Under the pieces are notes generated by a model that ran no database searches, was not told the DNA's origin, and worked only from the letters and a program-made list of their open reading frames with translations. A program made the position numbers and the translations under genes. This document shows, piece by piece, positions 11,569 through 18,247 of a DNA stretch of 32,611 bases; within the stretch, counting starts at the first letter, position 1, and the number at the start of each line of letters is the position of its first letter. The stretch comes from a virus. Taxonomy: Duplodnaviria > Caudoviricetes. The DNA is taken from IMG/VR virus record IMGVR_UViG_3300008255_000314, positions 1 to 32,611 of that record; one strand, written 5' to 3'.

Positions 11569-12474
11569 TCAATACGCCTCACATGATCCGCTAGATGCGT
11601 TGCAAAATGCGCCAAATCCAGACAGCTTTTCAACCTGCTCCTCTGTCATAGAGGCAGCTATTTTTATATCGTCTTTCCACCATCGTGGCGTTTTGTCTGG
11701 GTTAAGCGCAAATGTGCGACACATTTGCGCTTCCTTGTCTGCCCACCACTTTGCGCGTTCTGGGTAAAACTTAGCGAGATGTATCCTTGCTTCTTCTGAC
11801 TTCCAAAAGCATCCATCACAATTTCCAAGGAGGGTTTTTCCTTTTACGGACTGCAAAGGAAGGTCAAATCCTACTTCTTCCTCCCAAAATTTTGATACAT
11901 CTTCTTTTGTAATTCCGGCATCGTTAAGAGGAAACCACCTGACCCCCCTAACTTTGTGAGCCTTCATCGGGGATTTTCTTACTCGGCGCGGCTCATCGGC
12001 GCGAAAACCTATGGCAGAAATACGTTTATTAATGCCAACGGATTTTAGATACCGATGCGCGGTTTCGACCTTCATTTCGCCGGAGCAAAAGCGCTTTGTC
12101 ATATTCGGAAGGTATCTTTTTCTCTCTATGATCTGGTCAAATGGCTCGGCGTTTCTGCTGGCCGTGTCGAAGTTTACAATGTCAAACTTATCTGTTCCGT
12201 TCGGCCTGTTTCTATATTCAAGCCAAACTATTTTGACGCCCCACCTTTCGCTAACTTCATTAACAAACCACAATGTTTCTTCCATCTCCCTACCTGTATT
12301 TTGAAAAAGCACAACAGCCCTTTTTTCAAAATCACCATTGTTTTCAAGAATACGTTTAAGCATCATGCCGCTTGTTCTGCCGCCAGAAAACTGTATTACC
12401 ACGGGGAGAAGATTTCCTTCTTTGTCGAAAGCCTCTGGAAACTTAAATGGGTGCTTTGGAGAAAATAAATCCAT
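11569..12474 (-). CDS. PAPS-reductase-like PP-loop protein (adenine nucleotide alpha-hydrolase; DndC/CysH superfamily)
   Basis: FSGGRTSG PP-loop, FQNTGRE, RFCSGEMK, IGFRADEPRR and GNCDGCFWK. Visibly more AT-rich than its flanks. Confidence 0.88.
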   Translation of the reverse strand: MDLFSPKHPFKFPEAFDKEGNLLPVVIQFSGGRTSGMMLKRILENNGDFEKRAVVLFQNTGREMEETLWFVNEVSERWGVKIVWLEYRNRPNGTDKFDIVNFDTASRNAEPFDQIIERKRYLPNMTKRFCSGEMKVETAHRYLKSVGINKRISAIGFRADEPRRVRKSPMKAHKVRGVRWFPLNDAGITKEDVSKFWEEEVGFDLPLQSVKGKTLLGNCDGCFWKSEEARIHLAKFYPERAKWWADKEAQMCRTFALNPDKTPRWWKDDIKIAASMTEEQVEKLSGFGAFCNASSGSCEAY

Positions 12475-13764: not shown

Positions 13765-13882
13765 ATCTCTCGTGCCTCTGGTTGTCCCGCAGCTCGTCCG
13801 TTCTGACGATGGCATCGACGGTCAGCTTTGTGCAGCCTGCGATCATCGACAAGAACAGGACGAGTGCGAGAAGATTTTTCAT
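13709..13882 (-). CDS. small lipoprotein
   Basis: MKNLLALVLFLSMIAGC lipobox; ATGA overlap with the upstream gene. Confidence 0.6.
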   Translation of the reverse strand: MKNLLALVLFLSMIAGCTKLTVDAIVRTDELRDNQRHERYEQQQRTKATTSARLAPR

Positions 13883-14982
13883 CGAACGATTGCCCGATTT
13901 TCTTCGCGGACGAAAGCTCCGCGCAGCTGTTTGCCGGGATTGGCTTTGACCCATGAGTTCAGGGCGATCTGGATGTCGTCGTCCTTGAAGTGCTGACGCA
14001 GGGCTTCGAGGTCGATGATCTCGCGATTGGTCACTGTGCCTACCCACAACGTCTGTACGGTGGCCACAGAGCCTTCCCGACCACGGACGCGAGCAAGGTC
14101 AGCCGCGTCCTTGTTGGCCAGCTTGTCGAGCTTCTCTGCCTGTTTATCTGTGCGGATGGCGGTGTCGATCAGCTTGTTTGCCTCGCGGTTGTCGGCTTTG
14201 GCCTGCTTCGACAGCTCATGCGCGGCATCTTCCGCAGCTTCGGCGTCCTGCTTGGCCGCTTTCAGCTGTTCGCGTTCTTCACTCTTTGCCGCTTTCAGCT
14301 TATCGTTGGCCTCGTCCAGCTGGCGTTTAAGTTCCGCCTGCTTTTCCTTGTCGGCCTTTTCAGCCGCCGCCTTCTCGTCCTTGAGGCGCTGGATTTCAGC
14401 TTCCTGTTCGGCCTTCTTGCGGGCAGCTTCTTCCTCGATGGCTTTGCGGCGAGCTTCGGCCTCGGCATGGGCGCGGGCTTGCTCTTCCTTGGCAATCCGT
14501 TCCTTTTCCTCGGCTTCCTTGCGCTTGCGCTCTCCTTCACGCAAAGCGGCTTCCGCTTCCTCGCGCTTGCGTTGCGCCTCTTCCTCGCGCTTGCGGCGCT
14601 CCTCGTCCTCTTTTTTCTTTTGGTATTCGGACAGAGGGGTTGCAGCTGCATCGACGAGTTTTTTCAGGCGCTCTGTCCAGCTCTTGAACATGCCGTCCAC
14701 CATACGAGAGCCTTGTAGGTAGACCTCTTTCTCCTCGACGCGGGCTGCGTCCAGAGATTTATTTGCGCTCTTCACCTGTTTGATGAAGTCAGCCACCTTG
14801 CCAGCGGTTTCGTCGTCGTTGACCTCGGTCGGGATGCGATCAGCTGCATTGAGCAGACGCTCCGCGAACGAGAAAGTCTCAGGGTATTGCTCGCGCATCT
14901 TCTGCTCGAACACGTCCGCATCGCTCGGCGGATTGTTGCCGCCGATGCCGAGGCGTGTATCGGTATCGTTTAAAATAGACAT
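13879..14982 (-). CDS. long coiled-coil protein, possibly Gam/Gp157-like DNA-end protection
   Basis: 367 aa: N-terminal GIGGNNPP motif, E/K/A/R-rich coil, C-terminal ...IALNSWVKANPGKQLRGAFVREE. The function is inferred. Confidence 0.6.
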   Translation of the reverse strand: MSILNDTDTRLGIGGNNPPSDADVFEQKMREQYPETFSFAERLLNAADRIPTEVNDDETAGKVADFIKQVKSANKSLDAARVEEKEVYLQGSRMVDGMFKSWTERLKKLVDAAATPLSEYQKKKEDEERRKREEEAQRKREEAEAALREGERKRKEAEEKERIAKEEQARAHAEAEARRKAIEEEAARKKAEQEAEIQRLKDEKAAAEKADKEKQAELKRQLDEANDKLKAAKSEEREQLKAAKQDAEAAEDAAHELSKQAKADNREANKLIDTAIRTDKQAEKLDKLANKDAADLARVRGREGSVATVQTLWVGTVTNREIIDLEALRQHFKDDDIQIALNSWVKANPGKQLRGAFVREENRAIVR

Positions 14983-15042
14983 AGGTAGTTCTCCTTGGTA
15001 CGTTGCGCCGAAAACACCCGGCGTGTGGTGGTAGTGAATATA

Positions 15043-15177
15043 TCAAATTGGGTACACTGGATCAATCTTCTTGATGCGTTTCTGTACCTTTTTCTTGCCC
15101 GGCTTCACGCGCTGGCGGAAGACAGGATCAGAGAGCGTCTTGGCAATGCCGTTCTTGTACTTTTTGGGTTTTTTCAT
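15043..15177 (-). CDS. ArfA-like (alternative ribosome-rescue factor A-like) basic peptide, 44 aa, not in ORF track
   Basis: MKKPKKYKNGIAKTLSDPVFRQRVKPGKKKVQKRIKKIDPVYPI*. The core NxIxxxLxDPxFRQRV matches ArfA. ATGA overlap with the upstream gene. Confidence 0.7.
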   Translation of the reverse strand: MKKPKKYKNGIAKTLSDPVFRQRVKPGKKKVQKRIKKIDPVYPI

Positions 15178-15383
15178 TTCTGCCTTTCCCGCGCAATCTG
15201 CATTGCACGTTCGAGGATCAGATCAGCGATGCTGACCTCGATGACCTCCATGCGACGCACCGGCATCATGGCGATGACGTTGCCCATGTCTTCTGCCAGC
15301 TCAGGCGGGCAGCGCTCGATCAGGAACGTCGGCTCACCCTGCGGAGATGTCTTGATGTATCCGTTTTCGATAGCGTTTAGCAT
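15174..15383 (-). CDS. hypothetical protein
   Basis: MLNAIENGY start with GGAGG RBS; 69 aa. Confidence 0.7.
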   Translation of the reverse strand: MLNAIENGYIKTSPQGEPTFLIERCPPELAEDMGNVIAMMPVRRMEVIEVSIADLILERAMQIARERQK

Positions 15384-15384
15384 G

Positions 15385-15726
15385 TCAAACCTCCAAGTCT
15401 TCTTCGACCGGCGCATTAACGCCGATGTCGATGCCGTTCGTGGTGCGCTTGTAGTTCAGCGGTGCGCCGAGAGCGATTGCATCGACGATGGCGTCCTCGA
15501 TCAGGCCGCGGTTGTCTGCACTGACTTCGCCTGACACATTTGAGAGCAGGGCGATAACGCCGATGTAATGCAAGTACAGGGTGTTCATGGTATCGACAGC
15601 GGCACTGTGAGACTTTAGCATGTCGTCACGCTGTCCGACGTCGTTGCCGTGAGCTTCGATATTCCAGAGAGCGTGCTGTTTGAGAAACTCGATGTGGTCT
15701 TTTGGTGTTGTGATGCCTTCGATCAT
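15385..15726 (-). CDS. hypothetical protein
   Basis: 113 aa; ATGA overlap in a packed operon. Confidence 0.7.
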   Translation of the reverse strand: MIEGITTPKDHIEFLKQHALWNIEAHGNDVGQRDDMLKSHSAAVDTMNTLYLHYIGVIALLSNVSGEVSADNRGLIEDAIVDAIALGAPLNYKRTTNGIDIGVNAPVEEDLEV

Positions 15727-16215: not shown

Positions 16216-17070
16216 TTACTGTTTCAGCTCGGCCATTTTCTCGGCCATCTGCCACAGGGCGCGGTTCAGTTTCGTATCGGCGTCCACAGAGTTCACACCA
16301 CGCAGGCGGCGGCGCTGCCCGTTGGCATTGCGGCCTGACACGCCACCACGAACGAGGTTCTCTTGGATCGTGTTCATGGTGCGCCACAGGTCACGGCGAC
16401 CGTTTACGCCGTCATCCTGATACCGGCGGGCCGACAACAGGTTCTCAGGGGAGACGTCCAGCGTCGTTCCACGCACTTCCAGCGCGGCCTCAGCCATGAT
16501 CTCCTGCTCTTTGGTGTCCAGCGTCAGCCTTTTCCAGTCCTCGATCTGTGCGATGTGCTTAGGGGCATCCTCGATGATCTGGTAGGAACCCTCGATCACC
16601 TGACTGACGATGTCCTCCCGACCGGAGTGGCGCACCTTGATGTCCTGCGTCATGCCGGAAGACACCATCAGGCCGTTCAGGCAGGCCAGACGGAAGATGC
16701 CGAGGCTGATCTGGTAGGACGAGCCGCCGTCATGCGAGTTCAGAAGCACGATCTCCGGCACTTCGGGAGCCGCGGCCAGATCGGTGTTTTGCTGGCGGAA
16801 CTCTTGAAGCGCGTGGTGCGCATCAGCATGACGGAAGCGCAGGATGTGCTTGGTGAAGTCCTGCTTCCCTTCGATACGGGTGCGGGATTGCTTGGCCGAT
16901 ACAGGCTGAAAACCGTTATCAATCAAGCCTTTAACCACGTCGATCGTCGGGATAAAGCGGTAGTTATCGGACATCCGTTCCCACGGCTCCTGTGCGAATA
17001 CGGAAGGGGCTACACGTTGGATGTCTTCGAGGGACAGGATGCGGTCGCGTGCATTTGCGAATGAGCGCAT
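16216..17070 (-). CDS. DUF932/DUF945 family protein (plasmid leading-region type)
   Basis: APSVFA..SDNYRFIPT, FTKHILRFR, IVLLNSHDGGSSYQ..GIFRLACLNGL, DLWRTMNTIQENL and LNRALWQMAE. Confidence 0.92.
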   Translation of the reverse strand: MRSFANARDRILSLEDIQRVAPSVFAQEPWERMSDNYRFIPTIDVVKGLIDNGFQPVSAKQSRTRIEGKQDFTKHILRFRHADAHHALQEFRQQNTDLAAAPEVPEIVLLNSHDGGSSYQISLGIFRLACLNGLMVSSGMTQDIKVRHSGREDIVSQVIEGSYQIIEDAPKHIAQIEDWKRLTLDTKEQEIMAEAALEVRGTTLDVSPENLLSARRYQDDGVNGRRDLWRTMNTIQENLVRGGVSGRNANGQRRRLRGVNSVDADTKLNRALWQMAEKMAELKQ

Positions 17071-17400: not shown

Positions 17401-17724
17401 ATGACGAAGAAGAAACCCACCGAATATTACTCAGCCAAGGTCAAAGAGCAGATCGAAGCCCTCGGTCTGATGTTCGACGAACCGGCATACAAGCGCACCG
17501 TCGCATTGTTTCAAGAGCTGAAAATCACACAAAAGCAGCACGACGCCCTGATCCTCTTGCACGCGCAGGAAGGGGCCAGCCTCTTCAATCCGACAGAGTT
17601 CCCGATCCGCGCACGCATTTTTCTCGCCCTGCACTTCCTCGGCGTCGTAGCCTTGATCGTGAAGGTCGGATCGTTCTTCAAACGCATCGGTCGGCGCATC
17701 AAACGCGCATGGCTTGGCGCATAA
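17401..17724 (+). CDS. hypothetical protein with a C-terminal TM segment
   Basis: 107 aa, GGAG RBS, IFLALHFLGVVALIVKVGSFF followed by a basic tail. Confidence 0.7.
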   Translation: MTKKKPTEYYSAKVKEQIEALGLMFDEPAYKRTVALFQELKITQKQHDALILLHAQEGASLFNPTEFPIRARIFLALHFLGVVALIVKVGSFFKRIGRRIKRAWLGA

Positions 17725-18247
17725 CAAAAACACAAGGAAATCAACGGTGGACGCTCAACAAAATTTCCCGACGCTTCAATGGCTTGAAAAAACGGTGCAT
17801 CTGGCCGAGGTCAGCCCGTTCGAGAAGAACCCGCGCAAGATCACAGACGAGCAGTTCATGAAGCTGAAAGCGTCGCTGATCCGGCTCGGACAGTTCCGTC
17901 CCTTGCTTGTGACGCATGACCTGAAACTCGCTGGCGGGCATCAACGATTGAAGGCGATGCGCGAGCTTGGCTGGACAGAGTGCCGCATCTCCGTGCCGGA
18001 GCGACCGATTACCGACGACGAATACCGGCAGCTTCTTTTGCAGGACAACCACGAGAACGGCGTGTGGGATATGGACGCGCTGGCAAACGATTGGGACTTG
18101 GAAGAGCTGCGGGCTGTCGGCCTGCACGAAGTGATGAACATCCCGCCGATGGACAAGCTCGGCGAGGAAGAGACGCCCGGCAAGAACCAAGTGTGCTGCC
18201 CCGGTTGCGGCGAGGTCTTTCCAGTAAAGGGGAACAGGGCGCAATGA
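17714..18247 (+). CDS. ParB/Srx N-terminal-domain protein with a C-terminal Zn knuckle
   Basis: NPRKI, LKASL..LGQFRPLLV, GGHQRLKA, and CCPGCGEVF. Alternative start GTG at 17747. Confidence 0.88.
   Translation: MAHNKNTRKSTVDAQQNFPTLQWLEKTVHLAEVSPFEKNPRKITDEQFMKLKASLIRLGQFRPLLVTHDLKLAGGHQRLKAMRELGWTECRISVPERPITDDEYRQLLLQDNHENGVWDMDALANDWDLEELRAVGLHEVMNIPPMDKLGEEETPGKNQVCCPGCGEVFPVKGNRAQ

Follow-up and report, generated by a model that had tools for sequence, protein, structure and literature searches.

A 44-residue phage peptide with remote homology to the ribosome-rescue factor ArfA

The contacts made in Escherichia coli by the rescue factor ArfA (YhdL; PF03889; PDB 5MGP, 5MDV) on the ribosome and on release factor RF2 are known residue by residue. 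Ala18 packs between C1914 and Ile11, Pro23 stacks at A1492/A1493, and Phe25 together with Leu19 and Leu24 binds Trp319, Val198 and Phe217 of RF2, to which residues 27-30 add a strand, while the basic tail (residues 31-48) fills the mRNA channel (PMC8012679, PMC5378476). Contacts with the decoding centre come from Arg26 and Glu30, and binding of ArfA and RF2 to ribosomes takes place at any mRNA length, the check coming later (PMC8874680). ArfA systems work in species-matched combinations (PMC8012679). The N-terminal minidomain stabilises the open form of RF2 in E. coli. E. coli ArfA cut at Asn47 still works; shortening of the tail abolishes activity and lowers affinity for the ribosome (PMC5378476). 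ArfT of Francisella, which has 40 residues and no RNase III site, performs rescue by means of a basic tail of another kind (PMC6299226, PMC8874680).

The idea of a phage ArfA is not new. Annotations exist in GenBank, for Pseudoalteromonas phage J2-1, Citromicrobium phage RXM and Brevundimonas phage Bambus, and in print, where g10 of Citromicrobium phage RXM is annotated as ArfA (PMC8953757) and gp30 of pelagiphage HTVC027P, with the same annotation, is highly expressed both early and late in infection (PMC12753301). In the literature searched, which lay mostly outside subscription journals, no phage ArfA appeared with an experimental test, and the passages of PMC4131195 consulted add nothing on the subject. 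With E. coli ArfA as query, tblastn returned 17 records of a phage collection, three of them bacterial contamination; a short form of the kind described below returned 35, as weak matches. ArfA-like frames with KGKGS and YxR lie unannotated in phages pf16, CRP-212 and RsoM2USA (L059, L062, L063; match at 601) and in Cr30 (L061). Those of CRP-212 and Cr30 pass the PF03889 cut-off, and in CRP-212 a long annotated gene on the same strand contains the frame within its end. The ArfA-like frame of phage Arash (L058) carries the label ribosomal protein L2.

Coding evidence and genome setting

The window analysed here, a stretch of 32,611 nucleotides, is a 73%-complete virus record. On its minus strand, positions 15043-15177 encode 44 residues, MKKPKKYKNGIAKTLSDPVFRQRVKPGKKKVQKRIKKIDPVYPI, followed by a TGA stop; the product, P0002, contains 16 Lys/Arg and has a pI of 10.8. 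The TGA of an upstream 80-aa ORF of no known family (15174-15416, minus) overlaps the P0002 start codon (ATGA coupling), and a Shine-Dalgarno-like GGAAAGG (15183-15189, minus) precedes that ATG by 5 nt. Beginning 60 nt past the stop, a downstream ORF encodes 367 residues (13879-14982, minus), alanine-rich and charged, with no confident family. The earlier note described the 44-aa ORF, its ATGA coupling and its own stop codon as translation and ORF overlap give them; the peptide that it quoted was in the right frame but left off the last seven residues.

P0002 is likely translated, judging from its sequence features. Its frame is the best of six by codon usage, the synonymous codon index against the long genes of the phage is 0.65 (null mean 0.53; 50 of 5000 draws as high), and the frame is intact in two close homologs of 44-45 aa with 80% and 70% identity. 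The gene is also present in the 44.7-kb contig L113, a longer contig of the same phage. No close relatives with DNA context were found in viral contigs, and metagenomes gave only L113 and a marine short form, L114. Four of the eight listed runs gave identical short pieces only, with no sequence variants over or near the ORF.

Small genes running leftward form the block that holds the gene; this block diverges from the rightward packaging and structural genes, which start at about 17.7 kb, and recombination and SSB genes lie further left. From this position we infer that it is part of an early operon. A DUF932 gene (PF06067, E 5e-35; 16216-17070, minus) heads the leftward block, and a protein with a ParB-like N-terminal domain (17714-18247, plus) is encoded directly before the small and large terminase genes. 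A PAPS-reductase-family gene (PF01507, phrog_424; 11569-12474, minus) is AT-rich, unlike its neighbours; genes of this family occur in phage DNA-modification sets. Scans of window ORFs with Pfam and PHROGs showed no toxin, defence or RNA-repair neighbours, and nothing in the window ties P0002 to a host nuclease or toxin. The downstream 367-aa protein has no match in cultured phages (tblastn) or viral contigs, and a weak PHROG exonuclease match only (E 2e-4).

Given that no counterpart of P0002 occurs in the fetched flanks of 31 viral and 21 genomic loci with related terminases, the gene is accessory. Relatives of the terminase are found mostly in alphaproteobacterial-labelled genomes (21 loci, 45-58%) and also in Xanthomonas/Xylella phages (55%), and relatives of the capsid protein (53%) lie on mostly gammaproteobacterial plasmids. 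Together these relatives point to a proteobacterial host.

Homology to ArfA

The ArfA-homologous core, N9-K29 (15091-15153, minus), corresponds to E. coli N14-K34 and holds the equivalents of the helix, Pro23, Phe25, Arg26 and strand 27-30. Its identity to ArfA at 10 of 16 positions, as given in the earlier note, is correct against the MG1655 sequence and extends to 12 of 21 as far as Lys34. A PDB sequence search with P0002 returned six matches at E <= 10, all of them ArfA chains (E 0.07-0.18). A three-sequence profile (P0002 and its two close homologs) placed six ArfA chains on top (E 0.0013-0.0033), with the next non-ArfA protein at E 0.14. Against a profile of 25 bacterial ArfAs (25 of 30 fetched loci; 31 of 301 genomes matched), hhalign gave a probability of 87.8 and an E of 3.3e-6 over 27 columns, confined to residues 3-29, and a probability of 81.0 with a fourth sequence added.

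In a further comparison, none of 5000 composition-preserving shuffles reached the score of P0002 against any of three profiles built without it: the 25 bacterial ArfAs, nine cultured-phage proteins that were themselves found with E. coli ArfA, and both sets together. For the more distant homolog P0011, the shuffles (of 5000) that scored as high numbered 45 with the bacterial profile, 1 with the phage profile and 0 with the combined one. A 24-sequence profile matched ArfA in the PDB at E 9e-6; because this and a 9-sequence profile include P0002, they map its neighbourhood and are no independent tests.

The likeness to ArfA proposed in the earlier note is thus borne out by the PDB profile search, hhalign and the shuffles. 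In the profile check that the note had suggested, the similarity is significant over the core, but PF03889 (cut-off 25.5 bits) matches none of P0002, P0003, P0004 and P0011 and finds nothing at E <= 10 in the genome of the window. DUF7230 (PF23876, cut-off 27 bits) matches neither P0002 nor anything in the record, and the tie between them amounts to a feature look-alike of 0.90 to clusters with 10% DUF7230. P0002 is left unnamed by Pfam, PHROGs and NCBIfam, the last of which is also silent for E. coli ArfA itself, and tblastn finds no match to it in 50,697 records from phages. A match to UBact (E 0.2; 11.8 versus 35 bits) was rejected as a basic-stretch artefact, as were nitrile hydratase matches in the PDB (E 0.013-0.18, 14-15 residues) as short chance matches. 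The AlphaFold model (pLDDT 69.9, pTM 0.29) has one helix, predicted at residues 10-16. Foldseek with this low-confidence model ranked three ArfA chains first (E 0.89-3.6), which we do not count as support.

Within the core, the equivalents of the decoding-centre and RF2 contacts are kept as P18, F20, R21 and QRV 22-24, with Glu30 replaced by Lys; from the established structure of ArfA, the retained residues would contact the decoding centre and RF2. The hydrophobic patch Leu19/Leu24/Phe25, which faces RF2 Trp319, is Thr, Val and Phe in P0002, Ala being usual at position 19 in short forms. The Ile11/Ala18 minidomain is missing, with Lys at both positions, as it is in Pseudomonas-type members of the ArfA family. 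Alignment with E. coli ArfA agrees with the earlier note both on Lys at the position of Ala18 and on the absence of KGKGS.

Of K34-G35-K36-G37-S38 and R41, which do not vary among 25 canonical ArfAs, P0002 retains K34 alone. Its diverged basic tail, K30-I44 (15046-15090, minus), is without KGKGS, [YF]xR and KH and ends at position 49, 24 residues past the Phe25 equivalent, with 7 Lys/Arg in positions 31-48 compared with 8 in E. coli. A basic tail of this length, that of mature ArfA, should be enough to fill the mRNA channel. The evidence supports P0002 as a remote ArfA homolog whose homology in the core ends at Lys34. Given that it misses PF03889 and is without KGKGS, YxR, KH, the Ile11 hairpin and non-stop wiring, it is not a member of the ArfA family in the strict sense.

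Short relatives without KGKGS

At E <= 0.05, a four-sequence profile found matches in 19 of 301 genomes of Alphaproteobacteria. By eye these were mostly noise (long or opposite frames) with five or six short ArfA-like ORFs, and the best of the 19 was over the PF03889 cut-off (27.3 versus 25.5 bits). The 9-sequence profile gave 147 proteins, the best 120 of which belong mostly to a redundant marine 44-aa family; 92 sequences of this family align to P0002 without gaps (median 17/44 identical), and P0002 has their length and end point. A chain of intermediates joins P0002 to PF03889 members, and related short forms are common in alphaproteobacteria and phages, so that P0002 is not unique.

The marine family (L096:1492-1623, P0013-P0115) is abundant and tightly conserved. 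Its proteins end in acidic sequence and its genes carry a stop codon of their own; one member is labelled MarineAlpha6 and some DUF7230. The genomic member L096 lies among housekeeping genes, named from a reading of their translations. JGI annotates part of the short forms in general as DUF7230/PF23876 or as 'stalled ribosome alternative rescue factor ArfA'. No paper naming DUF7230 was found in literature mostly outside subscription journals, nor were assays of any short form found in the literature.

P0002 groups with six of these proteins (P0003, P0004, P0011, P0120, P0124 and P0126) in a subgroup of seven, in which phage origin is established for the window's P0002 only and two of the other six lie on 43-44 kb contigs. 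A quick tree (56 columns, 61 rows), of low power and to be taken as a lead only, has the seven on one branch (SH-aLRT 84) with the marine family alongside (SH-aLRT 88). All seven have Leu20, Pro23, Phe/Tyr25, Arg28 and Val29, conservation is concentrated at positions 14-29, and none has KGKGS, [YF]xR, KH or the Ile11 hairpin. The best local match of the subgroup profile is RXM g10.

Among anchored proteins, [YF]xR is kept in 24/24 canonical ArfAs, all of which have KGKGS, in 8/8 cultured-phage proteins and in 110/112 other short forms (1 of 25, 1 of 9 and 1 of 113, respectively, could not be anchored and are left out of the counts). Loss of [YF]xR therefore appears as the distinctive trait of the subgroup, although two chromosomal forms, L142 and L145, are likewise without it. 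The tails of the subgroup, 24 to about 42 residues past Phe25, are unrelated in sequence. Given that YxR is lost and the tails diverge in length and sequence, the part that senses the channel looks relaxed.

Short forms also differ in how their genes end. An in-frame hairpin with a U-run is present in 10 of 26 bacterial short-form loci, whereas random windows drawn from those loci have one in 38 of 520 cases. The same strict test, which misses the E. coli arfA hairpin that a looser test finds, detects none in ten phage genes, among them that of the window. Each of the ten loci, which by tree are about six independent lineages, was equalled by 0 or 1 shuffle out of 60. Nine of the terminators lie 23-31 codons past Phe25, eight of the genes are without GKGS and six have Lys or Arg at 18. 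These alphaproteobacterial genes (L094, L100, L124, L126, L131, L132, L136, L138, L139 and L140; match at about 1500 of each) are possibly an overlooked back-up rescue factor of Alphaproteobacteria with arfA/brfA-type wiring. Short ArfA-like genes, some with in-frame terminators, were found in 23 of 401 alphaproteobacterial genomes (24-sequence profile, E <= 0.001), as opposed to the 0 of 2,376 Alphaproteobacteria with arfA by nucleotide profiles in the published Table 1 (PMC11633108).

The stop codon of the P0002 gene falls 24 codons past Phe25, where terminator-wired relatives would be cut. There is no terminator in frame and no significant fold (z for RNA structure at the 3' end 0.67, -0.17 and 0.00), in keeping with the escape from the non-stop regulation of ArfA that the earlier note had proposed. 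The gene would thus encode a protein of mature ArfA length ended by a stop codon, outside non-stop control.

Possible functions and comparison with known systems

The reading that we tentatively prefer, while giving it not quite an even chance, is that P0002 acts as a constitutive RF2-recruiting rescue factor of the short, KGKGS-less ArfA type. P0002 would be made along with its operon, outside trans-translation control. When a ribosome has stalled on a broken message, its empty mRNA channel would take up the basic tail of P0002, and the conserved core would recruit host RF2, so that the nascent chain is released. Ribosomes freed in this way would return to the pool, to the benefit of the phage. 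The function is proposed from wiring and likeness, and we presume that P0002 is translated in infection, binds ribosomes, activates RF2 even though it has no Ile11-Ala18 minidomain, and benefits the phage.

P0002 may instead derive from ArfA and no longer serve as an adaptor. It could be a small basic protein that binds nucleic acid or ribosomes in some other role, or the product of an accessory gene in slow decay, the last codons of which an overlapping promoter keeps in place; we regard this as unlikely, though a serious contender. All tail motifs are gone, the protein is under every family cut-off and close relatives are very few. A promoter-like TTGATC-17-TATATT with extended TG (15037-15065, minus) also overlaps the last codons, which encode IDPVYPI, and the stop. 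This match is at chance level, however, with 2 such sites in 3 kb against 1.3 +/- 1.2 expected, and codon usage and the Shine-Dalgarno sequence are intact. The core positions fixed across members with 42-80% identity are those used on the ribosome, and the length and end point shared with the 92 marine short forms also argue against decay or a new role. As a separate observation, IDP(V/L)YPI is identical in the three closest homologs, which constraint at the DNA level (promoter overlap) could explain.

The earlier note had raised a dominant-negative role from Lys at the Ala18 position. Here P0002 would bind non-stop ribosomes and RF2, hold RF2 closed and block host rescue, in the manner of A18T, with which RF2 is bound and no release follows (PMC8012679, PMC5378476). 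That precedent, the missing Ile11 hairpin and the retention of RF2-contact residues when the tail motifs are gone all fit such a mimic, which we nevertheless consider improbable. Ala18 is invariant in the 20/20 proteins that have the Ile11 hairpin and variable in those without it. Lys18 occurs in 106/112 anchored short forms (a highly redundant set), and two proteins of cultured phages that exceed the PF03889 cut-off have it as well. Because loss of GKGS and Lys/Arg18 accompany back-up rescue wiring in the terminator-wired bacterial genes, Lys18 is probably not a lesion of the A18T type; an inhibitor made upon failure of trans-translation would presumably harm the cell, and this part of the argument comes from gene design. 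A phage also needs free ribosomes. The case for a mimic from Lys18 is therefore weakened.

A relaxed-specificity terminator is also improbable, and slightly more so in our estimate. Its RF2-activating core would have no need of an empty channel, and would free ribosomes from intact or stalled host mRNAs and so aid takeover. Selection in the subgroup at positions 14-29, the disappearance of YxR and GKGS and the unrelated tails are compatible with this, as is the binding of ArfA and RF2 to ribosomes independently of mRNA length (PMC8874680). In E. coli, however, shortening of the tail kills activity and lowers affinity with no widening of specificity (PMC5378476), and the tail of P0002 remains basic, with the full length of the mature form. 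Release without discrimination would strike phage mRNAs too, and YxR-less forms exist on chromosomes (L142, L145). In a bolder version, to which we would likewise give little weight, the subgroup shed the channel-sensing motif and kept only the RF2 module, as a channel- and stop-codon-independent RF2 switch by which ribosomes of the host would be stripped or locked as the phage takes over. If this were true, a rescue factor would have been turned into a translation weapon.

An accidental resemblance between ArfA and a lysine-rich peptide, to which the weak single-sequence E (0.07), the best Foldseek E of 0.89 from a low-confidence model and the empty tblastn search of phage records could point, is very improbable and largely refuted by the shuffles (0/5000), by ArfA ranking first in three PDB searches and by the intermediates that connect P0002 to PF03889 members.

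If the constitutive rescue factor that we favour releases peptide, the essential part of ArfA would come down to a core of 16 residues together with a basic tail of any kind, and phages would supply unregulated rescue; if P0002 inhibits, it would be a peptide lead against ribosome rescue. In either case it represents a natural minimal variant of ArfA, without the Ile11-Ala18 minidomain and without KGKGS-YxR, both thought to be central in E. coli. It thereby offers a sharp natural test of which parts of ArfA matter, and it is short enough for synthesis. With the concept of a phage ArfA already published, what is new here is the subgroup variant without YxR.

Of the systems to which P0002 can be compared, ArfT (Francisella) and BrfA (Bacillus) resemble it in being small and basic and in having no true KGKGS, and both depend on release factors. 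P0002, set against ArfT by description, keeps an equivalent of Phe25, which ArfT does not have; no BrfA chains were among its PDB matches in sequence and profile searches. With E. coli ArfA it shares Asn14, Ile16, Leu20, Asp22, Pro23 and Phe25, Arg26-Gln27-Arg28-Val29, Lys33-Lys34, a short helix before Pro23 and a basic tail that reaches past position 47. It differs in having Lys18 and no Ile11 hairpin, KGKGS, Tyr39-x-Arg41 or KH, in being without the RNase III hairpin and the hydrophobic extension, in its own stop and in falling under the Pfam cut-off.

Annotated phage ArfAs are, like P0002, short, phage-borne and ended by their own stop, with an in-frame terminator in 0/9 cultured-phage genes by the strict test. 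Unlike P0002, they have [YF]xR in 8/8 anchored proteins and GKGS in 7/8, and 5/5 of those scanned pass the PF03889 cut-off; this comparison leaves out HTVC027P gp30, and functions in it are by annotation only. The alphaproteobacterial and marine short forms share with P0002 a Lys-rich start, an Asn-x-x-Ala-Lys-x-Leu helix, Lys18, Phe25 and the absence of GKGS. They differ from its subgroup in keeping YxR, with few exceptions, and in that some carry in-frame terminators, whereas Gly15 and Lys30-Pro31 are features of the subgroup's own.
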